In this document: piece by piece, positions 104 through 42,981 of the stretch
Position numbering within the stretch: the first letter of the stretch is position 1
How the letters are laid out: every line of letters starts with the position of its first letter
From: a bacterium
GTDB taxonomy: Bacteria; Auribacterota; Auribacteria; Auribacterales; Auribacteraceae
Direction of reading: 5' to 3'
DNA length: 64,000 nt
Assembly: GCA_018435605.1 (NCBI GenBank)
Contig: JAHDNF010000004.1
Span: 184,542 to 248,541 of the forward strand
Position numbers and translations under genes: made by a program
Notes under the pieces: model-generated
Database searches by the model: none
What the model was told of the DNA's origin: nothing
Seen by the model: the letters and a program-made list of their open reading frames with translations, nothing else

Positions 104-3100
104 GTGGCTATAAACGAAATGCCAGATTTTGATATCTGGAATAATGCAGTTTTTGCCGATTACCCAGGGTACCCGCAAGGATTGAAAATTATTTCCGACA
201 ACAATAATGTCCTTCACGCAACGTATTATGTATACTATGCCAGAAATGTAAGCACTCCGCCCGGCGTTTATTATTCGCAGTCCTCTGACGCAGGTGCAAA
301 TTGGACGCCAACTCATCTTACACCGGATAGTTCCACCTATAACAGCGGTTATACAAGCACATGGCCGCGCCGGCCGTCTATCTCGAAATACGGCGATGTA
401 ATAGCAATAGCATGGGTGGAAGATTCGGTAATGGGCACCGAAGGTTTTGAGGATAAAAGAATATACCTGCAGATAAACGACAATAACGGGAATCCGTCTG
501 ACTGGTTGACGTCAAACATACAGGTCAGCGGATCGTCATCCATATATAGCAATGTAATTGTGCATGTCGACTCCACTAGCAATGTACATGTTATATGGGA
601 AGCCTCAAATTCCGGCGTATCTTCTATAGAATACGCCAAGTACACTTATAACAGCGGATCAGGCCAATGGACAACAACCGGCATGGAAACTGTATCGACC
701 GGTGCGTCAACCGATTACGTATTGCGTACTCCGTCGGTAACAACATCTGCTTACGGTGTTCACGCTATATGGGGCGAATACAAAAAAGAAATTATACAAT
801 TAGGCTCGGAAGAAACATTGTTTTTGGAAAACTTTAATAGTTATCCTACCAGTAACTGGGCAGGATGGGGAGCCAATGGCGGTGTTTATAGTTACACAGA
901 AGGTTCCAATACATATATAAGGATGATCAAAGATTCTTCTTCGGCACGGTGCGGCCTTTATCAAAAAGCTAATTGGAGTCCTTCTAAAGATCTTACGGGA
1001 GCAACTATTTCCATTGATATACGAACAAATCTAGGTTCATCCGTTTCAAACTCTGTTACAGCGGAAATTGTCGCTAAGCCGATTAACGGGGGAAACTATT
1101 CGACATTCAGTCTGCCTATTGGATCACTTTTAACTTTACCCGCATCATTATCAGGCTGGCAAACACTTAACTTTGATGCTGAAGACTTGACAGATATAGA
1201 AGGAACTTATGTATTGCCTGATCTTACCGATGTAATACAGGTTAAGATTCGTATCGAGTACACAGGCGCAGTTAATATCGATTTGGATAATTTTACGGCA
1301 GTAGGTTTTACTGATTCAACAACAATACCGCCTGAGATGCGTATTGTTTCTAGCACGCGAACAACATCGTGGCAGTCTGAGCAGGAAGTATACACTGATA
1401 CATACGAAAACGAACAATTGTTATCCGGTGCTCCGGGCAACCATGTGAATTATCCCGTTTATTTTCCGAAAATAACCGCCATGGGTGATTATACTTATGC
1501 CGTATGGCAGTTTACCACCGTAGGAACACCCGGCGACGACGGACTCGAACAATTTTCGGAAATAAAATATTCCAAACGAGATGTGTCTTCGTTGTCAAAC
1601 GATTGGGATACAGCGTCTACCATATCCTCTAGCGGATATGCACCCGCTATTTCCGTATGGAATAATTCTGGTACGCCTGCGGTACAGGTTGTATACGCCA
1701 ATAATTTTTCGGAGTATGTATCTGAAAATGCCTATACAGGCAATCTTTTGTACGTGGAAAGTGAAAACCACGGCGCAACTTGGTCGACTGCCGAAGGCAT
1801 TGCTTCAGGTAGCGGTTTGGCCAGCGGTATACGAAGGCCGTATCTAAACATCAGATGGGGCGGTCAAAATGGATTTCGCGCGGCTCATTTTCTATCGTAT
1901 CCTTTCATCTTTTCTGATGAAAACGGAATCTCTACATTAAACTGGATAAACGGCGGTGTAGATGTAGACAAGCCGGAAGAATATTATATGGTTCGCGGAG
2001 TGACTTTGCTTGATCCACCTAACCCGCCTTTTGCCAATATTACCTTGAACGAAGACGAAGAATTTATAGGGTTTACGATATCATGGAACCCGCCGGATAT
2101 AGTCTTTGCGCCAACAGGTTACAAGTTACGTCGTATTGCAAATAACAACACAGCGTCGCCGTATGAGCTCAATTCCGGCAATCCGATACACGCTATTGTA
2201 TATTTCGATGACGATAACATCTTAGCCGATACCCATTACCGCTATGAATTAGCTTATGTGATAGACGGATTAGCTTCACCGTGGTCGAGTTTGTCAAACG
2301 CAGTCAAACCTGATACGGTTTTGCTTATAGACGACTTCGAGTTAGATGCATCGCCACAAACCTATACCGGAATAGAATACACCATGTTTAACCCATATAT
2401 AACCGGTTCTATAACCGATGAAACTACCGAAGGGTTTGCCCCGGCATCTGGCGATAATTTTTATAAAATTGTATACGACGACAATGACGGGACAGCACCA
2501 GGGTCCTTTGTTTCTTTGGTATTTCCGACTGCCATGAATTTCACAGGTTACGGTAGCATCAAGTTTAATATATTGGCTCCGGTAGGAGCGCTTGAACGGG
2601 ATGTCGTAGTACAATTTGTGGAAGAAGATACCGGAGAAGTCTTTCAAATAGGCACTTCTATAACTCTTTCCGCTGACGGTCAATGGGATACATATTATCT
2701 GTTCTTCGATCAGGTCTCTTTGGAAGTAAACGGAATACCCGGCGCTATGCTTGATCTTGATAAAATAAAAAAGATTAATTTTGTAACTTGGTTTCCCGGA
2801 AGCACAACATATTATATTGACGACATAACCCTTATTCCAACTACATCAAGCAATATAATTTTATATTTAAGTCCAAAAAACCTCACGGCAGACCCTATTT
2901 ATGATTCCGGCGAAGAAAAAAGGCATGTGATGAATCAGCTTAATACCCCTGTTTACGTGTATTACGGAAACATGGATGCCCTCTGGCAATTAAGAATTTA
3001 TACCTCGTCCGTAGTTAAAAACAGAAATGCACAAGAACATATTATAAAAAGAGACGGATTGATCCGATACGATAATGCTACCGATACGGTATACCCGGAA

Positions 3101-3655
3101 TACACTATACGATTGAAAGTTTGGTGCGAAAATTTCGGCCCTCCGGGCTTTTTCAAATCGGACGGCACTATCAATGATCCGGTATACAAGATTTTAGGTT
3201 ATCCTCCTGTAACCAACGATTATTTCTTCAAAGGATATGATTTTGATAATGACGGCGATATTTCAGGTTATTATAACAGAGAACTAAATACGTATGTTGA
3301 AGGAAACAACCCGGGGCAATTCCCGTTCGACCTTGACGGCGATGGTTTTGCACAGGGAGACGACTTTTTTACCGAATCAGACAGGGATAGAATCGGTGAA
3401 GAACCGGTCTGGCTGTTCGTTCCTGTTATGAAACATCCTACAGAACCAATGGACTCCGACGCGATAGTCATGGATCCCGAAGACCCTGCAACATGGCGTA
3501 TACTTTCCGACTGGGATAAAGGATCAGGAGGACATCAGCTAGGGCTGTATTTCGCTGTTTTTATCAGCGAAGAATATATCTTAAATACCACTGATCCGGA
3601 CATTTTATACGGCGAATATACCAACGTGGTCATAGTAGACGTCACATATAACTAA
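104..3655 (+). CDS. Large (1183 aa) BNR/Asp-box repeat protein with C-terminal dockerin-like / thrombospondin-type-3-like calcium-binding repeats; no recognisable N-terminal signal peptide
   Basis: Asp-box motifs S-x-D-x-G-x-x-W (SQSSDAGANWT, ESENHGATWS, SGSGQWTT). C-terminal D-x-D-x-DG repeats (YDFDNDGDISGYY, FDLDGDGFAQGDDFF). The ORF opens after a TAA at 35-37; the first start codon is GTG at 104 (ATG at 119). A TATAAT-like hexamer lies at 32-37. Confidence 0.55.
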   Translation: MAINEMPDFDIWNNAVFADYPGYPQGLKIISDNNNVLHATYYVYYARNVSTPPGVYYSQSSDAGANWTPTHLTPDSSTYNSGYTSTWPRRPSISKYGDVIAIAWVEDSVMGTEGFEDKRIYLQINDNNGNPSDWLTSNIQVSGSSSIYSNVIVHVDSTSNVHVIWEASNSGVSSIEYAKYTYNSGSGQWTTTGMETVSTGASTDYVLRTPSVTTSAYGVHAIWGEYKKEIIQLGSEETLFLENFNSYPTSNWAGWGANGGVYSYTEGSNTYIRMIKDSSSARCGLYQKANWSPSKDLTGATISIDIRTNLGSSVSNSVTAEIVAKPINGGNYSTFSLPIGSLLTLPASLSGWQTLNFDAEDLTDIEGTYVLPDLTDVIQVKIRIEYTGAVNIDLDNFTAVGFTDSTTIPPEMRIVSSTRTTSWQSEQEVYTDTYENEQLLSGAPGNHVNYPVYFPKITAMGDYTYAVWQFTTVGTPGDDGLEQFSEIKYSKRDVSSLSNDWDTASTISSSGYAPAISVWNNSGTPAVQVVYANNFSEYVSENAYTGNLLYVESENHGATWSTAEGIASGSGLASGIRRPYLNIRWGGQNGFRAAHFLSYPFIFSDENGISTLNWINGGVDVDKPEEYYMVRGVTLLDPPNPPFANITLNEDEEFIGFTISWNPPDIVFAPTGYKLRRIANNNTASPYELNSGNPIHAIVYFDDDNILADTHYRYELAYVIDGLASPWSSLSNAVKPDTVLLIDDFELDASPQTYTGIEYTMFNPYITGSITDETTEGFAPASGDNFYKIVYDDNDGTAPGSFVSLVFPTAMNFTGYGSIKFNILAPVGALERDVVVQFVEEDTGEVFQIGTSITLSADGQWDTYYLFFDQVSLEVNGIPGAMLDLDKIKKINFVTWFPGSTTYYIDDITLIPTTSSNIILYLSPKNLTADPIYDSGEEKRHVMNQLNTPVYVYYGNMDALWQLRIYTSSVVKNRNAQEHIIKRDGLIRYDNATDTVYPEYTIRLKVWCENFGPPGFFKSDGTINDPVYKILGYPPVTNDYFFKGYDFDNDGDISGYYNRELNTYVEGNNPGQFPFDLDGDGFAQGDDFFTESDRDRIGEEPVWLFVPVMKHPTEPMDSDAIVMDPEDPATWRILSDWDKGSGGHQLGLYFAVFISEEYILNTTDPDILYGEYTNVVIVDVTYN

Positions 3656-4635: not shown

Positions 4636-5073
4636 TTATTTTCCCTTACACCTTGAACAGATGCCTTCCAATACTACCCTCTTATTGATAATGACTCCTT
4701 GTCTCTGCACAGCCTCCGGTACGGCGATATCATTATAAGCATCATTTTCGAAATCGTAAATGGTATAACACTTAATACATCTAAAATGATGATGATGACG
4801 CAAGTTGGGCTCAAAACGTTTTTGCTCACCCGTTCCTTCCACTAGATTAACTAGGCCTAGTTCAGTAAATGACAACAACGTTCGGTAAACGGTATCAAAA
4901 GAAATATTCGATAAGGTCTTTCGCACACGTTTGTATATAGCGTCAGCAGTGGGATGATCCGTTGCCTTAACTAGCTCATCAAATATGACCGATCGTTGCG
5001 GGGTAATCTTAAGCCCCCTCTCGGCACACTTGTCATAAAACATTTTTTTTAGGTCTTCATTATTAATTTTCAT
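4636..5073 (-). CDS. fur: Fur-family metalloregulator (Fur/PerR/Zur class; subfamily not resolvable)
   Basis: N-terminal winged-helix region (LKITPQRSVIFDEL) and C-terminal HHHHFRCIKC plus CSRC metal-site motifs typical of the Fur family. Confidence 0.8.
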   Translation of the reverse strand: MKINNEDLKKMFYDKCAERGLKITPQRSVIFDELVKATDHPTADAIYKRVRKTLSNISFDTVYRTLLSFTELGLVNLVEGTGEQKRFEPNLRHHHHFRCIKCYTIYDFENDAYNDIAVPEAVQRQGVIINKRVVLEGICSRCKGK

Positions 5074-5086
5074 AAGACCACTATAT

Positions 5087-5101
5087 AGTAATCATTACTA
5101 T
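5087..5101. promoter_or_regulatory. Perfect 7-1-7 palindrome TAGTAATcATTACTA in the divergent fur / nuoE-like promoter region (putative Fur-family operator, autoregulatory)
   Basis: TAGTAAT-C-ATTACTA lies 14 nt upstream of the fur start codon. The second copy at 4605-4620 has one mismatch. Confidence 0.45.
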
Positions 5102-5263: not shown

Positions 5264-5794
5264 ATGAACGACCCAAAATGTTCGGGGTGCGCATGTACAC
5301 TATCCGAAGAAGAAATCACAAAACGATTGGACGATATAATTGAAGAATATCGTGACAAACCGGGCGGCTTGATTCCCGCTCTGCAGATCGTGCAAAGCCT
5401 GCTGGGTTATTTGCCGGATAAAGTCATACGGTACTTGAGCAACGGATTTCATAAATCATACAGCGAAGTTGCAGGAATAGTGAGTTTCTATTCGTTTTTT
5501 TCTACTACTCCCCGCGGTAAATACATTATTAGGGTTTGTCTTGGAACAGCATGCTATGTACGCGGCGGAAAACAGATACTGGAAAACTTAAAGCAGGAAC
5601 TTGGTATCGATGTCGGCGAAACTACGGAAGATAGAATGTTTACCCTTTCCATAGCAAGATGCTTCGGCGCATGCGGCCTTGCTCCGGTAATAACTATTAA
5701 TGACGATATCCATCAGCGCGTCAAAGGCGCGAAAGTCAGGGATATCCTCAAATATTACCGCGAAAAGGATTCTCAGGGAAAGGAGATGAATTGA
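5264..5794 (+). CDS. NuoE-like thioredoxin-fold [2Fe-2S] subunit (HydC/HndA-like) of a multimeric [FeFe]-hydrogenase
   Basis: CLGTACYVRGG ... CFGACGLAPV cysteine pattern of the NuoE/24-kDa family. Translationally coupled to the next gene (stop at 5792-5794, next ATG at 5796). Confidence 0.8.
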   Translation: MNDPKCSGCACTLSEEEITKRLDDIIEEYRDKPGGLIPALQIVQSLLGYLPDKVIRYLSNGFHKSYSEVAGIVSFYSFFSTTPRGKYIIRVCLGTACYVRGGKQILENLKQELGIDVGETTEDRMFTLSIARCFGACGLAPVITINDDIHQRVKGAKVRDILKYYREKDSQGKEMN

Positions 5795-5795
5795 T

Positions 5796-8700
5796 ATGGC
5801 ACACCGATTTCAATCTATCAGCGATTTTAACTCATTTAAAAATAAACTTCAGTCCACTGAACGGAGAAAAACGCGCATTATGGTCTGCGCCGGAGGCGGA
5901 TGCCTCGCTTCAGGCTCGCTCGATGTAAGCGCGGCGTTCCGCAAAGAAATATTAAACCAGAAAATCGGCGATCAGGCGACTGTCATAGAAACCGGCTGTC
6001 AGGGTTTGTGCGCCGCGGGGCCTGTGGTGACTATTGAGCCGGACGGCATATTTTATGAGAATGTAAAGCCGCAGGATGTGCCTGAAATCGTCAAAGATCA
6101 TATAATGAACGGCAAAGTAGTACAAAGGCTTGTACATAAAGATAACCTAACAGGCGCCCCCATACCTAAAATGCAGGATATCCCCTTTTTTAAAAAACAG
6201 GAAAAGATAGTACTGCGCAACTGCGGAACTATCGATCCTTTGGATATAGAACAATATATCAATAAAGAAGGGTATGCCGGATTAGCCGGCGTACTCGACG
6301 AGATGTCATCCGATCAAATAATCGACACTGTAATAAAATCAGGGTTGCGCGGACGCGGAGGCGCAGGGTTTCTGACCGGCAAGAAATGGAGTTTCGCTCA
6401 AAAAACAGCAGGCGATGTCAAATATGTTCTGTGCAATGCCGACGAAGGCGACCCGGGCGCGTTTATGGATAGAAGTATTCTCGAAGGCGACCCGCACAGT
6501 GTTATAGAAGGCATGGCTATAGCAGGATACGCCATAGGCGCGAATCAGGGTTACGTATACGTCAGAGCTGAATATCCTCTTGCTGTGGAACGTCTTAACC
6601 ATGCAATTATGCAGGCTAGGCAATATGGATTGCTTGGCGACAAAATTCTAGGCACTAATTTTTCTTTTGATCTGGAAATCAGGATGGGGTCCGGCGCTTT
6701 CGTATGCGGCGAAGAAACCGCATTGATCGCGTCTATCGAAGGAAACCGCGGCGAACCGCGGCCAAGGCCTCCGTTTCCGGCGGACAAAGGGTTGTGGAAT
6801 AAACCAAGCCTTCTTAATAACGTAGAAACATTCGCCAATATTCCGGTTATTTTTTCAAAAGGTGCAGACTGGTTCGCCTCTTTTGGCACTGAAAAAAGCA
6901 AAGGCACCAAAGTGTTCGCTCTGGCGGGCGCGGTTAACAATACCGGACTGGTTGAAATTCCCATCGGAACCACTTTAGGAGACCTGATTTACGATATCGG
7001 AGCCGGCATGACGTCCGGTGCGGATTTCAAAGCCGCCCAGATCGGCGGACCCTCCGGAGGATGTGTACCAAAAGAATACCTCAACGTGCCTCTGGATTAC
7101 GAATCGCTCAACGAACTGGGTGCAATCATGGGTTCCGGCGGTTTAATCATTATGGATGACAATACATGCATGGTAGACGTTGCCCGTTACTTTCTCGAAT
7201 TCGTTCAGGAAGAATCATGCGGGAAATGTACTCCGTGCAGAGTCGGAACCAAACGTATGCTGGAAATTCTTACGCGGATTTGCGATGGTCACGGAACTAC
7301 GGACGACCTTTGCATGCTTAACGATCTCGGTGTCATGATCAAAGATACATCACTTTGCGGACTTGGACAAACAGCTCCGAACCCTGTATTGTCCACCATG
7401 AAACATTTTTTTGAAGAATACATCATGCATATTCGCGACAAATATTGCGCCGCCAGCATATGCCCGGCTCTTGTGCGGGCTTCTTGCCAAAATGCTTGTC
7501 CGGCAAATGTGGATATACCGGGTTTCGTATCGTTGATCGGAGAAAAACGGTATGCGGAAGCGCTAAAACTTCATCGCGAACGAAATCCGTTCGCATCTGT
7601 CTGCGCTCGTGTATGTTTTCATACCTGTGAGGATAAATGCAGGCGTTCTACAGTAGACGAACCGGTTTCTATAAGAGGACTCAAACGGTTCATGGTCGAA
7701 CAGGAAGTAACTGTTCAGCTACCGGAATTTCGGGAAAACTCAGCTAACGAAAAACGGAAAATCGCTATTATCGGAGCAGGCCCGGCAGGCTTGTCGTGCG
7801 CGTATTTTCTGGCTCGACTCGGTTACCGTCCGACAATTTTCGAATCGGAACACCGTCCGGGAGGCATGCTTGTGCAAACCATTCCGGCATACAGGCTACC
7901 GCGCGAAGAACTCGCCCGCGAAATCCGCATGATCGAGAATATGGGAGTGTCCATTGAAACCGGCATGCGGCTTGGCGAGAATATATCGTTGAAACAATTA
8001 CGCGATGACGGCTACGACGCTGTTTTCATCGCTGTCGGCGCGCCAAACGGTATGCGTCTTAATGTCAGAGGCGAAGACGCCGACGGCGTATTCGACGCTA
8101 TAGAATACCTGCGCCAATACAACATCCGAGGATCCGTTCCTGTAAAAAAACGTGTCGTTATCATTGGCGGCGGAAATGCCGCCATAGATGCGTCACGCAC
8201 TGCGTTACGGCTCGGCGCAGATCAGGTTACTGTCATGTACCGCAGAACACGAGGCCAGATGCCTGCGTATGCTGAAGAAGTCGTATGCGCCGAAGAAGAA
8301 GGCGTCAAATTCGAATTCCTTGTCGCCCCTACGGAAATAGTCGTGGAAAACGGTCAGGTATCAGGCATCAAATACCGTTACATGACACTCGGAGAGTTCG
8401 ACCGTTCCGGAAGAAGACGCCCGCAGGATATGGGCACGGAAGATTTTTTTATGGAATGCGATCAGGTAATTTCCGCAATCGGACAGTATATGGATCCGAA
8501 AGAAATGTTTACCGATATCAACATCAAACTGACCAGAAATAATCTGATAGAGGCGAATCCGGTAACCGGACAAACATCGGTCGATTGGATTTTTTCCGGC
8601 GGCGACAGCGTTACCGGCGCATCATCAGTGGTGCAGGCAGTAGCCGGCGGCGAACGAGCGGCTATCGGAATCGATATGTTTTTAACCGGTGCAAACCATG

Positions 8701-8912
8701 CTTTTTGGAGAAAAGAAAAAGCGGTTGACACATTCTTCGATCCAGATGCCGATATTGTAGATTGCAAACGAGCCGCCATGCGCCTTGTGCCGGTCATCAA
8801 ACGCAAAAACAACTTCAATGAAGTTGAACTTCCATGGACGGAAGGCGATGCTGTTCGTGAAGCAAAACGTTGTCTGCGTTGCGATTACGGTAAGACTACT
8901 GTGGAAAAATAA
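5796..8912 (+). CDS. NuoF-like FMN/NADH-binding [4Fe-4S] subunit fused to a GltD/NfnB-like FAD/NAD(P)H oxidoreductase domain (1038 aa)
   Basis: N-terminal 2Fe-2S region (VCAGGGCLASGS, CQGLCAAG). NuoF core (GLRGRGGAGF, ESCGKCTPCR). Extra Cys clusters (CPALVRASCQNACP, CARVCFHTCEDKC). Then IAIIGAGPAGLSCAYFLA and VVIIGGGNAAIDASRTA dinucleotide-binding motifs, as in glutamate synthase small chain, SfrB and FdhB. Confidence 0.8.
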   Translation: MAHRFQSISDFNSFKNKLQSTERRKTRIMVCAGGGCLASGSLDVSAAFRKEILNQKIGDQATVIETGCQGLCAAGPVVTIEPDGIFYENVKPQDVPEIVKDHIMNGKVVQRLVHKDNLTGAPIPKMQDIPFFKKQEKIVLRNCGTIDPLDIEQYINKEGYAGLAGVLDEMSSDQIIDTVIKSGLRGRGGAGFLTGKKWSFAQKTAGDVKYVLCNADEGDPGAFMDRSILEGDPHSVIEGMAIAGYAIGANQGYVYVRAEYPLAVERLNHAIMQARQYGLLGDKILGTNFSFDLEIRMGSGAFVCGEETALIASIEGNRGEPRPRPPFPADKGLWNKPSLLNNVETFANIPVIFSKGADWFASFGTEKSKGTKVFALAGAVNNTGLVEIPIGTTLGDLIYDIGAGMTSGADFKAAQIGGPSGGCVPKEYLNVPLDYESLNELGAIMGSGGLIIMDDNTCMVDVARYFLEFVQEESCGKCTPCRVGTKRMLEILTRICDGHGTTDDLCMLNDLGVMIKDTSLCGLGQTAPNPVLSTMKHFFEEYIMHIRDKYCAASICPALVRASCQNACPANVDIPGFVSLIGEKRYAEALKLHRERNPFASVCARVCFHTCEDKCRRSTVDEPVSIRGLKRFMVEQEVTVQLPEFRENSANEKRKIAIIGAGPAGLSCAYFLARLGYRPTIFESEHRPGGMLVQTIPAYRLPREELAREIRMIENMGVSIETGMRLGENISLKQLRDDGYDAVFIAVGAPNGMRLNVRGEDADGVFDAIEYLRQYNIRGSVPVKKRVVIIGGGNAAIDASRTALRLGADQVTVMYRRTRGQMPAYAEEVVCAEEEGVKFEFLVAPTEIVVENGQVSGIKYRYMTLGEFDRSGRRRPQDMGTEDFFMECDQVISAIGQYMDPKEMFTDINIKLTRNNLIEANPVTGQTSVDWIFSGGDSVTGASSVVQAVAGGERAAIGIDMFLTGANHAFWRKEKAVDTFFDPDADIVDCKRAAMRLVPVIKRKNNFNEVELPWTEGDAVREAKRCLRCDYGKTTVEK

Positions 8913-8938
8913 TCCTGATTAACATAGGAGATGAAATT

Positions 8939-10708
8939 ATGCCGAATGTAACGATCAACGGCGTAGATGTGTCGGTTCCAAATGGAACTACCATCCTTGC
9001 CGCCGCTAAAAATGCCGGTTTTGAAATACCCACCTTATGCGCTCTTGAAGATTTACACGCGGTAGGCGCGTGCCGTATATGCGTTGTCGAAGTGGAAGGA
9101 GCAAAAACACCGGTTCCTTCATGCGTTACTCCGGTCAGCGACGGGATGAAAGTATACACCAATACCCAGCGTGTACGCCAATACCGCCGCATGATGGTTG
9201 AACTCTTGCTGTCTGAACACGACGGAGTATGCCAAACATGCAACAGGTTTGCAGACTGCGAATTGCGAAAACTGGCTAACGAACTTAGCATACTTGATGT
9301 CAGGTTTACAGGCGATAAAAAATCACGAAAAATCGATAAAAGCACACCCGGTTTGATGCGCGACAACTCGAAATGTATTCTTTGCCGAAGATGCGTCACC
9401 ATGTGTAACCGGATTCAGGGCGTAGCCGCTTTGTTTCCGCAAAACAGAGGTTTCGAAACATCCATAGGACCGGCATTCTCTACAGACCTTCAGAACGTTT
9501 TTTGCGTGCAGTGCGGACAATGTGCGGCATTATGTCCGGTAGGAGCCATATCGGAAAATAATCACATCAGCGAGGTATGGGCCGCTCTTGATAACCCTGA
9601 TAAATTCGTCGTGGTCGAAACCGCTCCGGCAATACGCGCTTCTATCGGCGAATGTTTCGGGTACGACACCGGCACAGCTGTAACCGGAAAAATGGTAGCA
9701 GCGCTCAGACGGCTAGGCTTTGACGCGGTATTCGATACAAATTTTGCCGCCGATTTGACCATTATGGAAGAAGGAACCGAATTCCTTACACGCCTTAAAG
9801 CAGTTTTCAAAGATAAAAAAGACGCCCCGTTACCGCAGTTTACCAGTTGCTGTCCGGCATGGATCCGTTATGCGGAACATAATTACCCTGAATTATTGCC
9901 CAATATATCTTCGTGCAAATCGCCTCAGCAGATGTTCGGCGCGGTTGCAAAGACATATTACGCAAAAAAACTCGGTAAAAAAGCCGATGATATTGTCGTT
10001 ATATCGGTCATGCCTTGTATAGCAAAAAAATCGGAGGCAATCCGTCCCGAAATGAACGACAGCGGTGTACAGGACGTCGATTACGTGCTGACTACCCGCG
10101 AACTCGGATTGATGATTAAAGAATCGGGCATCGTATTCGAAAATTTACCTGAGGAATACGCAGACGCCCCTATGGGTAAAGGAAGCGGTGCGGCGGATAT
10201 TTTCGCCAATACCGGCGGCGTCATGGAAGCGGCGCTTCGTACGGCGTATGAGATTATCACCGGAAAGTCATTGCCCTTCGAAGATTTGCACATCAAACCC
10301 ATAGAAGGTTTGATAGGAATTAAACGGGCGGAATTCACAATAAAAGGAACCCTTCCGGAATGGTCTTTTCTTGAAGGAGTTACATTGAAAGTAGCGGTTA
10401 CTCATGGGCTTGGGCAGGCGAGAAAATTTGTCGATGCCCTGAAAGCGGGCCAAGAAGAATGTCATTTCATTGAAGTGATGACTTGCCCCGGAGGGTGTAT
10501 CGGAGGAGGCGGACAACCAAGGTTTACTACAGATGAAGTGCGTAATCAGCGTATGAATGTCATTTTCAAAGAGGATGAAGGGAAAAAAGTACGCAAATCA
10601 CACGAAAACCCTGAAGTCATGCGCTTATATGAAGAATTTCTCGGCGCACCTTTAAGTGAAATGTCTCATAAATTACTTCATACTAAGTATAAACCTTCTA
10701 ACAAATAA
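8939..10708 (+). CDS. hydA: [FeFe]-hydrogenase catalytic subunit HydA (N-terminal 2Fe-2S + 4Fe-4S ferredoxin domains + H-cluster domain)
   Basis: H-cluster motifs L1 FTSCCPAW, L2 MPCIAKKSE, L3 EVMTCPGGCIGGGGQP. N-terminal plant-type ferredoxin (GACRICVVEVEG). CILCRRCVTMCN and CVQCGQCAALCP 4Fe-4S motifs. Confidence 0.9.
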   Translation: MPNVTINGVDVSVPNGTTILAAAKNAGFEIPTLCALEDLHAVGACRICVVEVEGAKTPVPSCVTPVSDGMKVYTNTQRVRQYRRMMVELLLSEHDGVCQTCNRFADCELRKLANELSILDVRFTGDKKSRKIDKSTPGLMRDNSKCILCRRCVTMCNRIQGVAALFPQNRGFETSIGPAFSTDLQNVFCVQCGQCAALCPVGAISENNHISEVWAALDNPDKFVVVETAPAIRASIGECFGYDTGTAVTGKMVAALRRLGFDAVFDTNFAADLTIMEEGTEFLTRLKAVFKDKKDAPLPQFTSCCPAWIRYAEHNYPELLPNISSCKSPQQMFGAVAKTYYAKKLGKKADDIVVISVMPCIAKKSEAIRPEMNDSGVQDVDYVLTTRELGLMIKESGIVFENLPEEYADAPMGKGSGAADIFANTGGVMEAALRTAYEIITGKSLPFEDLHIKPIEGLIGIKRAEFTIKGTLPEWSFLEGVTLKVAVTHGLGQARKFVDALKAGQEECHFIEVMTCPGGCIGGGGQPRFTTDEVRNQRMNVIFKEDEGKKVRKSHENPEVMRLYEEFLGAPLSEMSHKLLHTKYKPSNK

Positions 10709-11690: not shown

Positions 11691-11750
11691 CAAGTTGGTT
11701 TGACGCTAAAAATGGCGAAGAAATTTCTTCTTACACCTGATGGAGATAAA

Positions 11751-12068
11751 ATGGCTTGGATATACTTGCTGATAGCCGGCTTGATGGAAATATCATGGGC
11801 GGTCGCGCTAAAACTTAGCGACGGTTTCACCCGACCGGTCGTATCAATATTCACTATTGTTTTGCTGGTTTTGAGCTTTATTTTTCTGTCGTTCGCATTG
11901 AAAACCATCGCTGTCGGTACCGGTTATGCCGTGTGGACAGGCATAGGAGCTGTCGGTACCGCAATAATAGGCATGCTGGTACTTGGCGAACCGGCATCTT
12001 TTATAAAAATATTCTGTATTTCTCTTATTGTAGCGGGAATAATAGGCATAAATCTATTTTCGCGGTAG
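11751..12068 (+). CDS. sugE: SMR-family small multidrug/guanidinium exporter SugE (Gdx)
   Basis: MAWIYLLIAGLMEISWAVALK...YAVWTGIGAVGTAIIGMLVLGE is near-identical in pattern to SugE/Gdx. GGAGA RBS 4-5 nt upstream of the ATG at 11751. The ORF-track N-terminal extension from 11700 was rejected. Confidence 0.8.
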   Translation: MAWIYLLIAGLMEISWAVALKLSDGFTRPVVSIFTIVLLVLSFIFLSFALKTIAVGTGYAVWTGIGAVGTAIIGMLVLGEPASFIKIFCISLIVAGIIGINLFSR

Positions 12069-12160
12069 CAATAATTCCGAACTGAAAATTTTTATTGCTT
12101 AATATTTTGACCTGTGTTTACAATAACCGTAAGACAAAAAATACGCTTATTATCAAATGA

Positions 12161-13486
12161 GTGGTTAATATGATTCAACATTCCAATCGGTATCAAGCAT
12201 TCCTTCTAATCGCGTTAATTTTTGCCATCGTTGGAAACAAATGTTCCTTTTCATCGGAACCCAATGAAAGCTCGACACAACTTACCGGACAATCAACACT
12301 CGGGTATTATCTAAAATATGCGTCTCTAAACAATCCGGCAATTGAAGCGTCGTACAACCGCTGGCAGGCAATGTTGGAAAAGATTCCTCAAGTGAAATCC
12401 TTGCCCGACCCGCGGTTTAGTTATGGGTATTATTTTCAGGAAATTGAAACCCGCGTCGGCCCACAACGCAACAGGTTCAGCGTTTCCCAGATGATCCCAT
12501 GGCTTTTTAAGCTGGATTTACAAGGAAAAATTGCACTACGGGATGCCCTTATCGCCCAATGCCAGTACGACACATTGAAACTTGCTTTATATGCCAAGGT
12601 GAAGACTATCTTTTTTAAGTATGCTTATCTTGGCCGTGAAATTGCCATTTTGAACGATATGGTATTTTTGCTAGATCAAATAGAGTCGGTAACTTTGACG
12701 CGATACAAATCCGGAACGACATCTTATGCCGATGTGCTTAAAACTCAAATAGAAATCTCAAAACTAAAAGACCGCCTTGAGTCGGCTCGGCAAATGCGCC
12801 AACCGCTAATGACGGAGTTTAACTCTTTACTCAACCGTCCGGCTAACATTGAGATAACATTCCCTGACGATATACCTGACAAACACAAAGATTTTACTGA
12901 TGAAGAATTGTTTCAGGCTTTGCGCGAATTCAACCCGCAACTGGCGGCTGTTTCAGTATCTATTGAGAAACGGAAAGATATGCGGAATTTGGCAAAACAG
13001 GAGTTTTTCCCCGATGTAACTATCGGACTCGATTATGTCCAAACCGATAACTCTATTTTTCATAATGTTCGCGACGACGGAAAAGACGCGGTAATCGGTA
13101 TGGTTTCGGTCAATGTACCGATCTGGTGGAACAAGTATTCCGCGGGTATTCGCGAAGCTGAAAAAAATTCTACCGCAGTTCAACATGATTTTGCGGAAAC
13201 TCAAAATAATCTGACAACCGCTCTCAAATCAGCTCTATATGAATTCCATGACGCTGGGCGTAAAATGAATCTTTACAATCAAGAACTTATTCCAAAAGCC
13301 GAACAAACTCTGTCCACTGTCCGTCAGGCATATACAGCCGGATCGGCGGATTTTTTTGATCTTATCGACTCGTATAGAACTCTGCTGGATTTCAGGCTGG
13401 CATACGAAAAAGAATTTTCCCGCAAATTTAAAAGTCTTGCTCAGATCGAAATGCTTTCCGCGACAGATTTAATGGAATACGACTGA
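12161..13486 (+). CDS. Outer-membrane efflux factor (TolC/CusC/CzcC family) of heavy-metal RND system
   Basis: Signal peptide, then a lipobox-like ...VGNKCSF. Paired OEP-family repeat regions (SYADVLKTQIEISKLKDRLESARQ). Operon context with MFP and HME-RND pump. Start is GTG 12161 or ATG 12170. Confidence 0.7.
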   Translation: MVNMIQHSNRYQAFLLIALIFAIVGNKCSFSSEPNESSTQLTGQSTLGYYLKYASLNNPAIEASYNRWQAMLEKIPQVKSLPDPRFSYGYYFQEIETRVGPQRNRFSVSQMIPWLFKLDLQGKIALRDALIAQCQYDTLKLALYAKVKTIFFKYAYLGREIAILNDMVFLLDQIESVTLTRYKSGTTSYADVLKTQIEISKLKDRLESARQMRQPLMTEFNSLLNRPANIEITFPDDIPDKHKDFTDEELFQALREFNPQLAAVSVSIEKRKDMRNLAKQEFFPDVTIGLDYVQTDNSIFHNVRDDGKDAVIGMVSVNVPIWWNKYSAGIREAEKNSTAVQHDFAETQNNLTTALKSALYEFHDAGRKMNLYNQELIPKAEQTLSTVRQAYTAGSADFFDLIDSYRTLLDFRLAYEKEFSRKFKSLAQIEMLSATDLMEYD

Positions 13487-13577
13487 TATTTTGATCTTTT
13501 AAATCAAAAATTGAATCTTAACTATAATATATTTCATAAATATCTCTCATCAACCTACAACTGGAAAGGTCTGCACA

Positions 13578-15530
13578 ATGAGCGATGCGCGAAAGAAAAT
13601 AGCGGTTGTTTTTATCGTGATACTGTCTGCCTTATTCGGTTTTTATGTAAGAAGTTTTTTCACCCGTTCTCATCCGGAAGCAATAACGAATATTGGAGAA
13701 CCGGTATCGGCACAAGTTTGGACGTGTTCAATGCATCCGCAAATCCGTCAGCCTGAAAAGGGTCTATGCCCTATTTGCGCTATGGAATTGATTCCTGTTG
13801 TAGCCGACACAGGAACGCATACAGGCGAATGGCAATTGAAATTATCTGAAAACGCCATAAAACGGGCTCAGGTCGAAACCGCTACAGTTGAACGAAAATT
13901 CGTGACTAAAAAAATCAGGATGGTCGGCAAAGTAGCCTACGACGAAACACAGCTCGCTTATATTACCGCGTGGGTACCGGGCAGAATAGATAAGCTGTAT
14001 GTGGACTACACAGGCATACCTGTAAAAACCGGCGACCACATGGCCGACCTTTACAGCCCTGAGTTGATCAGCGCGCAGGAAGAGTTGATTCAAGCTGTAA
14101 AAACCAGCGGTCAATCGGAAGGCATGCCGGTTATCAAAGATATTGCAAACAAGACCATTATGGCTGTCAGAGAAAAATTGAGGCTCTGGGGATTGACCGA
14201 CGAACAGATTCAACAGATCGAACAAAAGGACAAACCTTCCACGCATATAACAATTTCTTCTCCTTTGAGCGGAATAGTGATTCATAAAAATGCCTTTGAG
14301 GGAATGTACGTACAAACCGGCACAAAAATATACACTGTAGCCGACCTTACGCATCTCTGGGTTAAACTCGATGCGTACGAATCTGATCTCGTATGGCTTC
14401 GATACGGACAGGATGTTATATTTTATACTGAAGCATACACGGGCGAACAATTCGAAGGAAAAATCGTTTTCATCGATCCGGTAATCGATTCTAAAACCCG
14501 TACAGTTAAAGTGCGCGTCAACGTGGATAATTCCGCAGGTAAATTGAAACCCGACATGTTCGTGCGCGCGGTTGTAAAATCAACACTGGCTGAGGATGAC
14601 AAAATTGTCAGCGGCAAATTCGCAGGCAAGTGGATCAGCCCCATGCATCCTGAGATAGTCAAAGATCATCCCGGCACTTGTGACGTCTGCGGTATGCCGC
14701 TTGTCAGCGCAGAGTCGCTAGGGTTTGTATCCGATGCCGATGCAGGGGCATTGCCGCCCTTGGTGATACCCCATACCGCGCCGTTGATTACCGGACAGCG
14801 GGCGGTTGTATATGTGGCTGTTTCCGAAGAAGAAGGATTGTTTGAAGGCAGAGAAATACTGCTTGGCGCACGCGCCGACGACCACTATATTGTGCGGGAA
14901 GGTTTGTCAGAAGGCGAACAGGTGGTTGTAAGAGGCGTATTCAAGATTGATTCGGCAATACAAATTCAGGCAAAAAAAAGCATGATGAATATGCAGGACA
15001 GCGCTCATCACAGCGCAACCGGTTACGAGGATGCGTGTCACACCGAAAAACGTCCGGTTTTTCCGGAAAAATTTTTGGAGTCTATAACGCCGGTATATAC
15101 GGCGTATTTCTCTATACAAACTTTTTTAAGCAAAGATAACTTGGAGTCCGCCATAAAAGAATCGCGCAAACTGATTGACGCCGTTAACGCGGTTGACAAA
15201 ACTAATCTTGATCCCCAAGAGCTTATCATTTGGAACAAGTATAGTTCGCAATTGATCTCTATCGGTGAAAAAATTGTTTCGAGCAACTTGTTACAGTCAG
15301 TCAGAGAACAATTCCAGCCGCTTAGCGACATAGTTACAGGTCTTGTGAAGGAAATCGGTTTTGCCGATTTTGAAAATATATATATGATGCAATGCCCTAT
15401 GGCATTTGATAATAAAGGCGCAGGATGGCTTCAGCGTGAGGCTGAGATCGCTAACCCGTATTTCGGAGCCGCCATGTTTCGATGCGGCGAGCAGAAAACT
15501 GTATTCAAACATTCGGCGCAGTCCCGTTAA
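13578..15530 (+). CDS. CusB/CzcB-like periplasmic adaptor (MFP) with two N-terminal CxxC heavy-metal-binding modules and a long C-terminal extension (DUF3347-like)
   Basis: WTCSMHPQIRQPEKGLCPICAMEL and WISPMHPEIVKDHPGTCDVCGMPL motifs. HlyD-like beta-barrel/lipoyl regions. ~200-aa C-terminal Cys/His-containing tail. Confidence 0.75.
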   Translation: MSDARKKIAVVFIVILSALFGFYVRSFFTRSHPEAITNIGEPVSAQVWTCSMHPQIRQPEKGLCPICAMELIPVVADTGTHTGEWQLKLSENAIKRAQVETATVERKFVTKKIRMVGKVAYDETQLAYITAWVPGRIDKLYVDYTGIPVKTGDHMADLYSPELISAQEELIQAVKTSGQSEGMPVIKDIANKTIMAVREKLRLWGLTDEQIQQIEQKDKPSTHITISSPLSGIVIHKNAFEGMYVQTGTKIYTVADLTHLWVKLDAYESDLVWLRYGQDVIFYTEAYTGEQFEGKIVFIDPVIDSKTRTVKVRVNVDNSAGKLKPDMFVRAVVKSTLAEDDKIVSGKFAGKWISPMHPEIVKDHPGTCDVCGMPLVSAESLGFVSDADAGALPPLVIPHTAPLITGQRAVVYVAVSEEEGLFEGREILLGARADDHYIVREGLSEGEQVVVRGVFKIDSAIQIQAKKSMMNMQDSAHHSATGYEDACHTEKRPVFPEKFLESITPVYTAYFSIQTFLSKDNLESAIKESRKLIDAVNAVDKTNLDPQELIIWNKYSSQLISIGEKIVSSNLLQSVREQFQPLSDIVTGLVKEIGFADFENIYMMQCPMAFDNKGAGWLQREAEIANPYFGAAMFRCGEQKTVFKHSAQSR

Positions 15531-15541
15531 CGGAGTTTGAT

Positions 15542-18500: not shown

Positions 18501-19426
18501 GAGAACGGTATCCGATACGCCTTAGGTACATGCGTGAATTGCGCGATTCTATTGAATCACTGGAACGAATCCTTGTGCCCGCGCCGGACGGCGCTCAGAT
18601 ACCGCTAATCCAACTTGCAGATATACAATATACACAAGGTCCACAGATGATAAAAAGTGAGGATACGTTTCTTATAGGATACGTAACCTTTGATAAAAAA
18701 GATCAATTCGCCGAGGTCGACGTAGTCCGGCAGGCACAGGAATACCTTCAGAAAAAAATACAGACGGGCGAGTTTGTTGTTCCTCCAGGGGTAAGTTATG
18801 TTTTTGCAGGAAGCTATGAGAATCAAGTGCGCTCGGAGCGGAAACTCCGAGTACTTGTGCCTGTTGCTCTGCTGATGATATTCATTATTTTATATTTGCA
18901 ATTCGGATCGCTTATAACCAGCTCTCTAGTTTTTAGCGGCATATTCGTTGCATGGGCAGGCGGTTTTATCGTGTTATGGCTGTACAGCCAACCGTGGTTT
19001 ATGGATGTATCTTTGTTCGGCATCAACTTACGTGAATTATTTCAGGTTCATCAGATCAATTTAAGCGTCGCGGTTTGGGTGGGGTTTCTGGCATTGTTCG
19101 GCATTGCATCCGACGACGGAGTTGTAATGGCGACATATCTTACGGAATCGTTTCGATCTAAACAGACCTCATCAGTACGGCAAATACGCGACGCCGCTAT
19201 CGAAGCAGGTAACCGGCGCGTCAGGCCATGCCTTATGACTACTGCAACAACCATTCTTGCGCTACTTCCTGTGCTGACATCTCGCGGACGAGGATCGGAT
19301 ATTATGGTGCCGATGGCTATACCTGTATTCGGCGGGATGCTATTTGAACTGATAACCATGTTTGTCGTACCGGTACTGTACTGCGCGTGGCAGGAACGCC
19401 GGTTCAAGACTATCAAATCTTCCTGA
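15542..19426 (+). CDS. cusA: Heavy-metal efflux RND pump (CusA/CzcA family), unusually long (~1294 aa) with extra hydrophobic segments and a ~140-aa periplasmic insertion
   Basis: Conserved HME-RND blocks (VPLTEFDM start region, FGFSMIYVIFEE, GIAIAIGTMVDMGIVICENI, ASDDGVVMATYL). ACGGAG RBS before the ATG at 15542. The ORF-track start at 15482 overlaps cusB and was rejected. Confidence 0.85.
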   Translation: MTEKNNAQSASIIDGLIKFCLEKKVIVFLVTLLFIAWGILVAPFDWHIPGIQRDPVPVDAIPDIGENQQIVFTQWPGRSPQDIEDQITYPLTVNLLGIPSIKTIRSYSMFGFSMIYVIFEESAGFYWSRSRILEKLNSLPTSVLPDNVTPMLGPDATALGQVFWYTLEGQDKDGNPAGGWELQELRTIQDWYVRYALSAAEGVSEVASVGGFVKEYQIDIDPDAMRVYDVTLDHLIRAVKNANLDVGARTIEVNNVEYVIRGVGFVKNIADLENSVVAVRDNIPVYLKNVAHVTLGPALRRGVLDKEGAEAVGGVVVARYGANPLETIRNVKKRIEEISPGLPAKTLADGTQSKVSIVPFYDRTGLIYETLGTLNTALILQIIVTVLVILVMLMHLKSSIMISGLLPLAVLMCFIAMKLFGVDANIVALSGIAIAIGTMVDMGIVICENIIQHLKAEPDEDSKQVIFRASSEVAGAVLTAIATTIIGFLPVFALEAAEGKLFKPLAFTKIFALFASLIVAICIIPPVAHVILAKRKKSILLSTTVYILLLTAGGHVFLSYSRLIGAVVIAVTAYHLLLKFLPDRWIPSAKRFSPFVMPIAVALLLTDYWLPLGPAAGFIWNLFFILGIVGGLLGIFYLFHKFYSDMLKWCLDHKTLFLSIPILIMLVASNIWMGFDTIFGWIPDSVKRTPVISALWHAFPGLGKEFMPPLDEGSFLFMPTTMPHASIGEVYDVLRKQDMAMYTIPEIDTVVGKLGRAETPLDPAPISMIETIIHYKPEFIVDKSGRRLTFKYESNKNDLFRDENGVALLAPDGEPYIVRGKFTRSSDGKLIPDPSGIPFRLWRPALDPSLNQDREYWKGINSPSDIWDTIVQTVDIPGTTSAPKLQPISARIVMLQSGMRAPMGVKVKGPDLESIEKVGIEIEKFLKEVPSVNPPTVNADRIIGKPYLEINIDRNAIARYGIQIAAVQQVIEVAIGGKPLTASVEGRERYPIRLRYMRELRDSIESLERILVPAPDGAQIPLIQLADIQYTQGPQMIKSEDTFLIGYVTFDKKDQFAEVDVVRQAQEYLQKKIQTGEFVVPPGVSYVFAGSYENQVRSERKLRVLVPVALLMIFIILYLQFGSLITSSLVFSGIFVAWAGGFIVLWLYSQPWFMDVSLFGINLRELFQVHQINLSVAVWVGFLALFGIASDDGVVMATYLTESFRSKQTSSVRQIRDAAIEAGNRRVRPCLMTTATTILALLPVLTSRGRGSDIMVPMAIPVFGGMLFELITMFVVPVLYCAWQERRFKTIKSS

Positions 19427-21703: not shown

Positions 21704-21721
21704 TTGTGAAAAAAATCACAA
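21704..21721. promoter_or_regulatory. Rex operator (TTGTGAAaaaaATCACAA) upstream of rex-hydCBA
   Basis: 17/18 match to the Rex consensus TTGTGAA-N4-TTCACAA, with perfect TTGTGA/TCACAA arms. It lies immediately upstream of a sigma70-like promoter and of the rex gene. Confidence 0.7.
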
Positions 21722-42774: not shown

Positions 42775-42981
42775 AACTTTATATCCTCCTTTTAAAGTTT
42801 TATATATTTCGCGTTACAGGATTTAAACATCAATATAATACAATACAAGCGCCATGCCACATTTGGACATTGACGCATGTATCTATATAACTAATTTATA
42901 AAAAGAATGTTAGGCATTACGACAACAAGATTGAGGTAAAAATAAGCCGTGACAAACAGGCTCAAGAAAAAATAAGTTGTG

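Follow-up and report, generated by a model that had tools for sequence, protein, structure and literature searches.

A Predicted Heterotrimeric [FeFe]-Hydrogenase Whose HydB-Type Flavoprotein Carries an NADPH/FAD Module

INTRODUCTION

Which electron carriers are joined to H2 by a hydrogenase whose flavoprotein subunit holds both an NADH-type and an NADPH-type module? The question is raised by a three-gene operon, hydC-hydB*-hydA, at positions 5264-10708 (+ strand) of a 64,000-nucleotide (nt) stretch of bacterial DNA from a member of the Auribacterota (contig JAHDNF010000004.1; the whole stretch is referred to here as the window, with positions counted from its first letter). The re-oxidation of NADH to H2 is a central problem of fermentation and syntrophy, and the accepted routes are confurcation with reduced ferredoxin or operation at very low H2. 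A bifurcating core on which a port for NADPH stands in place of the port for ferredoxin suggests a third route and would tie H2 directly to the NADPH that serves anabolism. An initial annotation of the locus had described its middle gene as a fusion of NuoF and GltD and its flavoprotein as NADPH-type. Judged from sequence, the locus encodes an [FeFe]-hydrogenase of the HydABC/Bfu type, soluble and heterotrimeric, that belongs to the catalogued "sub-type I BfuABC" kind and in which an intact NADH-binding core is followed by an NADPH/flavin adenine dinucleotide (FAD) module at the position where other bifurcating enzymes dock ferredoxin.

RESULTS AND DISCUSSION

The Operon and Its Products

The three open reading frames (ORFs) lie exactly where a three-gene hydrogenase locus had been annotated; they are codirectional and tightly packed, with gaps of 1 nt between hydC and hydB* and 26 nt between hydB* and hydA. 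The first gene, hydC (5264-5794, +), encodes a BfuC/NuoE-like protein of 176 amino acids (aa), a thioredoxin-like [2Fe-2S] subunit with the C1 cluster, which matches PF01257 (2Fe-2S_thioredx) over its full length (residues 23-165, E = 2e-48). The four C1 cysteines, C92, C97, C133, and C137, are invariant among its homologues (n = 63). The middle gene, hydB* (5796-8912, +), encodes a flavoprotein of 1038 aa in which Pfam, NCBIfam, and alignments to solved structures distinguish a HydB/BfuB core and an NfnL/GltD-like NADPH/FAD module. Along this protein the Pfam matches run from a partial 2Fe-2S_thioredx domain (residues 13-101) through Complex1_51K (181-350, E = 1e-46), SLBB, and NADH_4Fe-4S (461-545, E = 2e-33) to Fer4_20 (551-638, E = 5e-24) and Pyr_redox_2 (655-952, E = 1e-30), while the NCBIfam matches are to nuoF_fam (147-546) and to the gltA/gltD families (∼550-965). 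The annotated NuoF::GltD fusion is thereby borne out. We can set aside a sequencing or read-through artifact as its source because a protein identical to HydB* is present in public data (P0001), including a Logan contig from run SRR13787009, and because 62 homologues from independent genomes are single ORFs with a conserved junction, LVRA[P/S]C.

The last gene, hydA (8939-10708, +), encodes the catalytic [FeFe]-hydrogenase subunit, a 589-aa protein of the M3a type (Fe_hyd_lg_C, E = 4e-96). We searched for the H-cluster motifs as P1 TSC[C/S]PxW, P2 MPCxxKxxE, and P3 ExMxCxxGCxxGGGQP, and all three are present (FTSCCPAW at 301, MPCIAKKSE at 358, and EVMTCPGGCIGGGGQP at 512). HydA also scores above the curated cutoff of the NCBIfam model FeFe_hydrog_A6, "group A6 NADH-dependent [FeFe] hydrogenase" (852.8 vs 765 bits), in agreement with the earlier view that this is a true multimeric [FeFe]-hydrogenase. 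Further Pfam matches are to Fe_hyd_SSU, Fer2_4, and NADH-G_4Fe-4S_3 (the NuoG-type [4Fe-4S]), and the cofactor layout read from the sequence is an N-terminal [2Fe-2S], a His-ligated [4Fe-4S], 2×[4Fe-4S], and the H-cluster domain; Pfam finds no C-terminal [2Fe-2S] domain in the 589 aa. The best solved relatives are the HydA1 subunits of the T. kivui and A. woodii HydABC complexes (E = 1e-174), and the P2 and P3 motifs are invariant among the partner HydAs of homologous loci. HydA is, by its motifs, a complete H-cluster hydrogenase. One position of P1 varies: residue 305 (window 9848-9850), the second Cys of TSCCPAW, is Cys in 7 of 61 partner HydAs, and the other 54 read TSCSPGW. The latter form is also that of A. 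woodii HydA1 (7q4v_A), a subunit of an active bifurcating enzyme.

The design of this operon has been described before. Among the group A3 hydrogenases of Hydrogenedentota, Zheng and Huang (2024, mSystems, PMC11406978) distinguished five sub-types; one of them, "sub-type I BfuABC", has a BfuB with a DPD_II domain (2×[4Fe-4S]) and a C-terminal FAD/NAD(P) domain in place of B3/B4, accompanied by BfuC and an M3a BfuA. Relatives were noted in Spirochaetota, Pseudomonadota, Planctomycetota, Verrucomicrobiota, Kiritimatiellota, and Thermodesulfobacteriota, mostly without BfuD (PMC11406978). The window operon has all the defining features of the sub-type and, like most members, lacks BfuD; it differs in coming from another lineage, its nearest relative being in a metagenome-assembled genome (MAG) of Ca. 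Auribacterota. The locus is accordingly a further member of a design described in silico in 2024, a modest result for this window in itself. The sub-type I paper makes no mention of the circular permutation, the Lys ligand, or the affinity to the Stn type that we describe below. An NfnL-like domain in "FeFe hydrogenase group A" has also been mentioned briefly by Xiao et al. (PMC12018979).

The Bifurcating-Type Core of HydB*

Residues 26-562 of HydB* align without gaps to the HydB subunits of solved bifurcating enzymes, with E values down to 1e-238; these are 7t2r_B, from the A. mobile NiFe-HydABCSL, and 7q4v_B, 8a6t_B, and 7p5h_B, the HydB chains of [FeFe]-HydABC complexes. The alignments end at about residue 562, where the C-terminal 2×[4Fe-4S] ferredoxin-like domain of those proteins begins. 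At the N-terminus, a partial PF01257 match marks a thioredoxin-like [2Fe-2S] domain holding the B5 site (residues 13-113; 5832-6134, +), with C31, C36, C68, and C72. The NuoF-type core follows (residues 140-545; 6213-7430, +), identified from Complex1_51K, NADH_4Fe-4S, and the alignment to solved HydB, with its flavin mononucleotide (FMN), NADH, SLBB, and B1 [4Fe-4S] elements: the FMN motif GRGGAGF at 186, the NADH motif CGEETAL at 304, which includes E307, and the B1 ligands C475, C478, C481, and C521.

The core ends in the B2/Zn hinge, H545-x5-C551-x4-C556 (7428-7475, +), to which C458 and C496 upstream also belong and which immediately precedes the fusion junction. The B2 ligands of A. mobile HydB are C438, C476, H525, C531, and C536 (Schut et al., PMC9304861), and C458, C496, H545, C551, and C556 of HydB* match them position for position. 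Virtually every BfuB has the B2 His, which non-bifurcating homologues lack (PMC9304861). Position 496 is Cys in 24 homologues and Thr in 34, a Cys/Thr alternation already known for BfuB at this B2 position (Schut et al., PMC9304861). In the 62 full-length homologues, every other element of the core that we followed is invariant, namely the B5 cysteines 31, 36, 68, and 72, GRGGxGF, CGEETAL, the B1 cysteines, and C458, H545, C551, and C556 of the hinge; the GGPSG and AFM motifs are likewise invariant.

E307 is the equivalent of Glu-286 of T. sibiricus NfnB, a residue that confers selectivity for NADH over NADPH (PMC12018979). A literature search on NuoF E183 and NADPH specificity found nothing. 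With the FMN/NADH site fully conserved, E307 included, the suggestion that the flavoprotein is NADPH-type instead of NADH-type does not hold. What HydB* lacks is the B3/B4 ferredoxin-like domain: past residue 560 there is neither a pair of CX2CX2CX3CP motifs nor a Fer4-type dicluster match, whereas the canonical HydB encoded at a second hydrogenase locus of the window does carry the CX2CX2CX3CP pair. In its sequence motifs, then, HydB* keeps the whole bifurcating-type core: B5, FMN, the NADH-selective pocket, B1, and the His/Cys B2(Zn) hinge.

A Circularly Permuted NADPH/FAD Module at the Fusion Junction

The sequence just past the hinge, ICPALV, is still HydB-like, and from R561 on it is of the GltD/NfnL type, with the first cluster Cys of the module only eight residues past the hinge. 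The resulting 470-residue module (residues 561-1030; 7476-8885, +), delimited by alignment to StnC/NfnA and by the permutation test described below, is predicted to hold two [4Fe-4S] clusters, FAD, and an NADPH site, and it sits directly past the hinge in the place of the B3/B4 ferredoxin-like domain. Its Fe-S part (residues 561-638; 7476-7709, +; Fer4_20/DPD_II), defined from Pfam and ligand conservation, offers C564, C568, C603, C607, C611, E612, C615, and K630 (in LKRF) as candidate ligands. The FAD and NADPH Rossmann domains (residues 655-952; 7758-8651, +; Pyr_redox_2, E = 1e-30) contain the two Rossmann motifs that had been picked out in the initial annotation, IIGAGPAG at 658 (GxGxxG, 660-665) and IIGGGNAA at 789 (GxGxxA, 791-796), followed by Y815-R816-R817. 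GxGxxA is an NADP(H)-type motif (PMC7483475). Both glycine motifs and Y815-R816-R817 are invariant in the 62 homologues, which agrees with the earlier assignment of this domain to NADPH. A C-terminal tail (residues 985-1030; 8748-8885, +) ends in RCLRC (C1026, C1029) and aligns to residues 14-43 of NfnB and 18-46 of NfnL.

The best solved relatives of the module are neither NfnB nor GltD but the GltD-like inserts in the NuoG-like subunits of the Stn/NfnABC enzymes. Residues 561-1030 align with residues 101-567 of StnC/NfnA over shared boundaries, with E values of 1e-116 to 1e-104 and 392-350 bits (9bov_A, residues 101-567, E = 3e-116; 9n5u_A; 8oh5_C, residues 101-566); the matches to NfnB/NfnL are weaker (1e-86 to 1e-83, 292-282 bits). 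The stretch that is N-terminal in NfnB/NfnL (…NF.EV…EA.RCLxC) sits at the extreme C-terminus of HydB*, in residues 1001-1030. When we moved residues 985-1030 ahead of residue 563 and rescored the profiles, the Fer4_20 match grew from profile positions 21-109 to 1-109 (84.5 to 96.0 bits) and that of TIGR01316 from 35-449 to 1-449 of 449 positions (348.9 to 362.4 bits), while PRK12771 and PRK12814, profiles in which the permuted order is native, score higher on the natural order. Rescoring of the sequence thus confirmed that the module is circularly permuted.

The permutation also bears on where the Fe-S ligands of the module lie. Because the Pfam Fer4_20 match begins at residue 551, C551 and C556 were considered as the first Fe-S motif of the GltD module, and this assignment was rejected: they are hinge residues, since the two cysteines otherwise missing from the module are supplied by the C-terminal RCLRC. 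A ligand of the proximal cluster is K170 in StnC (LKSF) and Glu in NfnB; K630 (LKRF) of HydB* is the equivalent of StnC K170, and R700 that of StnC R239. The eight cysteines of the module (C1026 and C1029 among them), E612, K630, and R700 are invariant in the 62 homologues. By these features, the cassette is of the circularly permuted, Lys-ligated Stn/NfnA type. We note that the 566-position profile PRK12771 ("NAD(P)-binding protein") begins its alignment with position 4 at residue 515, about 45 residues ahead of the module boundary and within the hinge and the last part of the NuoF helix bundle (residues 515-560; window 7338-7475). The extension may be spurious, or stand-alone PRK12771 proteins may retain part of the HydB hinge.

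Distribution and Conservation of the hydC-Fusion-hydA Triad

The fusion had been considered uncommon as the flavoprotein of a HydA complex, and the searches showed otherwise. A protein search, with clustering at 90% identity, returned more than 120 clusters that share 66-78% full-length identity with HydB* and the matching Pfam set, with named sources in Phycisphaerae, Hydrogenedentes, Lentisphaerae, and Chitinispirillaceae. Two Hydrogenedentes proteins (P0045 and P0113) have 67-68% full-length identity to HydB*. The design is both widespread and, as sub-type I BfuABC, already published. A scan of one genome per species, probed with six HydB* peptides only, gave 80 loci, and the hydC-fusion-hydA triad was found in ∼75 species-level genomes of at least 10 phyla. 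Carriers belong to Ca. Auribacterota, Fibrobacterota, Kiritimatiellota, Ignavibacteriota, Bacteroidota (many of them Prolixibacteraceae), Spirochaetota, Lentisphaerota, Planctomycetota, and Verrucomicrobiota, and three are cultured gammaproteobacteria: Photobacterium lipolyticum DSM 16190, P. sagamiensis, and Vibrio sp. CAU 1672. The closest locus, L002, is in the Ca. Auribacterota MAG (HydC 94%, fusion protein 86%, and HydA 91% identity). The partner HydAs across the loci are 54-91% identical to the window HydA, with most at 60-68%; for canonical HydAs the figure is 44-49%.

The gene order hydC-fusion gene-hydA is retained in every locus with sufficient flanking sequence, and the triad has no other conserved neighbor: when ORFs within 4 kb were clustered across the loci, the largest cluster covered at most 15 loci and was a generic sensor family. 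Nor did we find a conserved BfuD, maturase, Nfn partner (NfnA/NfnS, PyrK-like), regulator, or ferredoxin-type domain beside the triad across loci, and maturase genes were seen neither beside the Photobacterium copy nor among the annotated window ORFs. Since order and ligands are kept and no other neighbor is conserved, the unit under selection is the triad itself, with both nucleotide sites intact. One divergent locus (L066, 7543-12479) encodes a fusion protein of 50% identity over its full length, and the next gene there encodes not a HydA but a molybdopterin/FdhA-like protein (…CPYCGVGC…). The BfuB::NfnL flavoprotein thus also seems to be paired with formate-dehydrogenase-like partners.

Comparison with Known Enzymes

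The canonical bifurcating HydABC enzymes of T. maritima, A. woodii, and T. kivui, together with the NiFe-HydABCSL of A. mobile, share HydA, HydC, and the HydB core (FMN/NADH, B1, B2(Zn), B5) with the window enzyme, and such complexes give the best matches among solved structures to both HydA and the HydB core. They differ in their ferredoxin-docking B3/B4 domain, for which HydB* has the NADPH/FAD module, and because of this replacement the third substrate is predicted to be NADP(H) and not ferredoxin. StnABC/NfnABC (Nfn-Bfu), from S. ovata, C. saccharolyticus, and T. sibiricus, combine the same permuted, Lys-ligated cassette, with the same boundaries, with a BfuBC-type core, yet the parts are wired differently. 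There the cassette lies in a NuoG/HydA-like subunit (a NuoG/FdhF-like BfuA) that has no H-cluster, where it feeds the mid-potential chain, and B3/B4 stays on BfuB, which reduces ferredoxin; in the window enzyme BfuB bears the cassette, B3/B4 is absent, and BfuA is a real HydA. The same comparison bears on the precedents given in the initial annotation for a NuoF-GltD fusion, SfrB and the β subunit of NADP-dependent formate dehydrogenase, which we could not confirm in the literature: StnC and NfnA, the solved relatives, hold the module in a NuoG/HydA-like and not in a NuoF-like subunit, and M. thermoacetica FdhB has been described without an FMN/NuoF domain (PMC5736913).

Other relatives share single features. 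Hyd1ABC of Syntrophomonas wolfei, a non-bifurcating, NADH-dependent enzyme, is likewise trimeric, ferredoxin-independent, and without the ferredoxin-like B3/B4 domain (PMC11406978); in its HydB the domain is simply missing, whereas in HydB* a large NADPH/FAD module has been added, and H545 is invariant among HydB* homologues, whereas non-bifurcating homologues lack the B2 His (PMC9304861). NfnAB/NfnSL possess a homologous FAD/NADPH/2×[4Fe-4S] subunit, but in native order, with an N-terminal RCxxC, a Glu ligand, and a bifurcating FAD, and they need a PyrK-like NfnA/S partner, for which no gene is conserved at loci of the window type. The "glutamate synthase-linked" group A2 of HydDB resembles the window enzyme in associating HydA with a GltD-like NAD(P)H flavoprotein. 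The HydDB rule assigns A2 to a HydA with a GltD-like neighbor and no NuoF, and A3 to one with a NuoF neighbor (PMC5037454), so that the window enzyme, with NuoF and GltD in one polypeptide, falls outside A2 and would be labeled A3, implicitly ferredoxin/NAD-bifurcating, which would leave the NADPH module hidden. Because such classifiers check only for a NuoF or a GltD neighbor, enzymes with this fusion are counted as ordinary ferredoxin/NAD-bifurcating hydrogenases in metagenomic surveys.

Proposed Mechanism and Its Alternatives

Solved structures of Bfu enzymes place NAD(H) at FMN, which is connected by B1 and the BfuA chain to the source of mid-potential electrons; the mobile C-terminal domain of BfuC shuttles C1 between FMN and B3. 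The low-potential path then runs from C1 through B3/B4 to ferredoxin, which docks on the B3/B4 domain (PMC12018979). In Stn/NfnABC, the GltD-like FAD begins one linear chain and has been shown or argued to be non-bifurcating in both solved enzymes. We suggest that in the HydB* enzyme the mobile C1 domain of HydC would hand low-potential electrons not to B3/B4 but to the Fe-S pair of the cassette, from which they would pass to FAD and NADP+, so that NADP(H) would take the place of ferredoxin on the low-potential branch. The cassette FAD would act as a plain converter between two-electron and one-electron transfer, as in Stn/NfnABC, and not as a second bifurcation site. H2/H+, at mid potential and connected through the HydA chain and B1, would thus be coupled to a high-potential partner, NAD(H) at FMN, and a low-potential one, NADP(H) at FAD, with the net reaction NADH + NADPH + 2 H+ ↔ 2 H2 + NAD+ + NADP+, in which ferredoxin has no part. 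Use of both NAD(H) and NADP(H) is to be expected because the NADH/FMN site is intact and the ferredoxin-docking domain is swapped for an NADPH module. We put at even chances the proposition that the operon encodes a sub-type I Bfu enzyme in which NADP(H) replaces ferredoxin and NADH, NADPH, and H2 are coupled in this reaction; that the enzyme is a ferredoxin-independent confurcating/bifurcating hydrogenase, with NADH and NADPH as its high- and low-potential partners, we propose more tentatively, as possible but somewhat doubtful.

Such coupling would make sense in a particular range of H2 pressure. From physiological potentials of -280 mV for NAD, -380 mV for NADP, and -414 mV for H2 at 1 atm (PMC9304861), and with 29.6 mV per decade of H2, we calculated an equilibrium H2 pressure of ∼1.4e-3 atm (∼150 Pa) for NADH plus NADPH, compared with ∼3 Pa for NADH alone and ∼16 kPa for NADH plus ferredoxin. 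At moderately low H2, a fermenter could therefore use the enzyme to shed NADH as H2 without reduced ferredoxin, and at higher H2 it would serve to charge the pools of both pyridine nucleotides.

As the main rival we consider a dual-donor hydrogenase without coupling, comparable to the NADH-dependent HydABC of S. wolfei with an NADPH port added, in which electrons would pass over the Fe-S network between the H-cluster and either NADH at FMN or NADPH at FAD, each independently of the other. B3/B4 is missing here as it is in the S. wolfei enzyme (PMC11406978), the cassette FAD is of the non-bifurcating Stn type, and by our calculation NADPH-to-H2, and NADH-to-H2 at very low H2, would each be feasible alone. 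We nevertheless regard this enzyme as rather unlikely, in view of the strict conservation of the B2 His545/Cys hinge, B5, and a mobile-domain HydC with C1, hallmarks that non-bifurcating homologues do without, and of the attachment of the cassette exactly at the low-potential exit and not on the mid-potential HydA chain. In another rival explanation, the added FAD might itself bifurcate. Zheng and Huang (2024) proposed that it forms a second site beside FMN-FeS, with ferredoxin possibly as a fourth partner (PMC11406978), which would make the enzyme an integrated hydrogenase-Nfn, and the homologous NfnB/NfnL does bifurcate at its FAD. The module of HydB*, however, has the Stn/NfnA features (Lys630 instead of Glu, the permuted topology) and is closer to StnC/NfnA than to NfnB/NfnL (392-350 vs 292-282 bits); in both solved Stn/NfnABC enzymes a single chain leaves this FAD, and neither an NfnA/NfnS(PyrK)-like partner gene nor a ferredoxin-type domain is conserved at the locus, all of which makes two centers improbable. 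We give still less credence to the version in the initial annotation, a plain NADPH-linked hydrogenase with NADPH as its sole pyridine nucleotide and the NuoF part as a mere Fe-S/flavin wire. It would account for the NADPH-type GltD module, and NADP-specific multimeric [FeFe]-hydrogenases do exist, such as the Hyt-Fdh complex of C. autoethanogenum (PMC6288185), but the NADH pocket shows no decay: all 62 homologues, drawn from at least 10 phyla, keep GRGGxGF, CGEETAL with its NADH-selective Glu, AFM, and GGPSG unchanged. The two-center and NADPH-only explanations thus fit the sequence evidence less well than does an uncoupled enzyme.

Several considerations weigh against the coupled, NADP(H)-using enzyme that we favor. 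The path from C1 to the cassette is drawn from the position of the junction and not from a structure, and the nucleotide specificities are predictions from motifs. An AlphaFold2 monomer of HydB* (31-sequence alignment) has a mean predicted local distance difference test score (pLDDT) of 69.6 and a predicted template modeling score of 0.48, with pLDDT below 50 at residues 560-646 and 968-1038, which comprise Fe-S loops, the junction, and the tail; with such low confidence in these regions, the model gives no usable geometry. NADP(H) lies only ∼100 mV below NAD(H) in vivo, so that the energetic gain from strict coupling is modest, and an uncoupled enzyme would work at low H2 too. Ferredoxin or flavodoxin could dock elsewhere on the enzyme, a second, FAD-based bifurcation center has been speculated for sub-type I (PMC11406978), and our literature searches turned up no enzyme of this type that had been purified or assayed.

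Should the coupled reaction prove correct, this would be the first Bfu-type enzyme with NADP(H), not ferredoxin, as its low-potential partner. It would amount to an unrecognized route from NAD(P)H to H2 in many fermenters, among them Prolixibacteraceae, Spirochaetota, the PVC group, Fibrobacterota, and some Photobacterium and Vibrio, and predictions of H2 metabolism made from genomes under "A3, ferredoxin/NAD-bifurcating" would need revision. The proposal is directly testable because the family occurs in cultured strains.

A Second Hydrogenase Locus and Regulation

A second hydrogenase lies ∼12 kb downstream of the first, at a locus more elaborate than the initial annotation had described. Its locus begins with a Rex box, TTGTGAAAAAAATCACAA (21704-21721, +; a sequence match with one mismatch), and rex (21977-22621, +), followed by hydC (22640-23134, +), a canonical hydB (23118-25022, +) for a 634-aa protein whose C-terminal domain has the CX2CX2CX3CP motif twice, and hydA (25024-27033, +) for a 669-aa protein with a C-terminal [2Fe-2S] domain. 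The locus continues with a PAS-containing, HydS-like sensory [FeFe]-hydrogenase (27048-28778) and a phosphatase of the SpoIIE/PP2C type (28775-29932), which together look like an H2-sensing regulatory pair. Between the two loci, identity is 41% for HydC, 50% for the HydB core (residues 27-560), and 45% for HydA. That the window holds a differently wired, rex-linked hydrogenase is supported by the canonical HydABC and the Rex box, but the contrast drawn earlier, NADH against NADPH, is not: because ferredoxin-docking B3/B4 is exchanged in HydB*, the two enzymes are predicted to differ in the third partner, ferredoxin versus NADP(H). The two-locus arrangement is echoed in Spirochaetaceae and Fibrobacterota MAGs, where a canonical HydCBA adjoins the fusion-type cluster on the opposite strand (L014, 7884-12004; L017, 7019-11119; L019, 5294-5980; L027, 3215-7521). 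The recurrence of genomes carrying both types implies that the two have different jobs.

We considered Rex control of the first operon and rejected it; no Rex-like site precedes its hydC, the sole good match in the window being the one ahead of the second locus, and matches with three mismatches occur at chance level. Control by Fur/PerR was also considered. A divergent gene for a Fur/PerR-family regulator (4636-5073, - strand; PF01475, E = 4e-28; the best NCBIfam matches are PerR models, all below cutoff) does neighbor the operon, and a perfect 7-1-7 palindrome resembling a Fur/PerR box, TAGTAATcATTACTA (5086-5100), lies 13 nt from the start codon of this fur-like gene. The palindrome adjoins the -10 hexamer of a promoter-like site on the minus strand (5108-5080), within its footprint, and it probably reflects autoregulation of the fur-like gene. 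The fur-adjacent position of the operon is correct for this genome, but it is not a property of the system, as no Fur homologue stands beside the triad in any of the 80 related loci, the closest one (L002) included.

Palindromes of the form TGTTA-N6-TAACA (Rex/CRP-like) occur 42-307 nt before hydC of the fusion-type operon in five loci (L008, L012, L020, L032, and L060), all from Bacteroidales or Bacteroidetes genomes. Of 13 matches to this pattern in 1.13 Mb of loci, six fall within the 24 kb of upstream windows. Control of the operon in those five genomes may be of a redox or cyclic AMP type.

Other Genes of the Window

The window opens with a 1183-aa ORF (104-3655), part of a 1793-aa gene that runs off the window start, for which Pfam gives no match at E ≤ 1e-6. 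The hydrogenase operon and a DUF4197 gene are followed directly by the region 11700-19426, which encodes an SMR pump and a TolC-like/CusB-like/RND heavy-metal efflux set; the CusB-like member combines two HMBD heavy-metal-binding domains with a DUF3347 domain. Two full-length DnaK (Hsp70) paralogues are encoded within the 64 kb, in the regions 40840-45618 and 59417-62533, one beside ClpB and an M48 peptidase and the other beside DnaJ. Signaling proteins at 46642-48924 (-), 53440-55893 (+), and 57057-58433 (+) comprise REC-GAF-SpoIIE and GAF-SpoIIE phosphatases and a PAS hybrid histidine kinase, a set that suggests a partner-switching or PP2C-rich regulatory repertoire.

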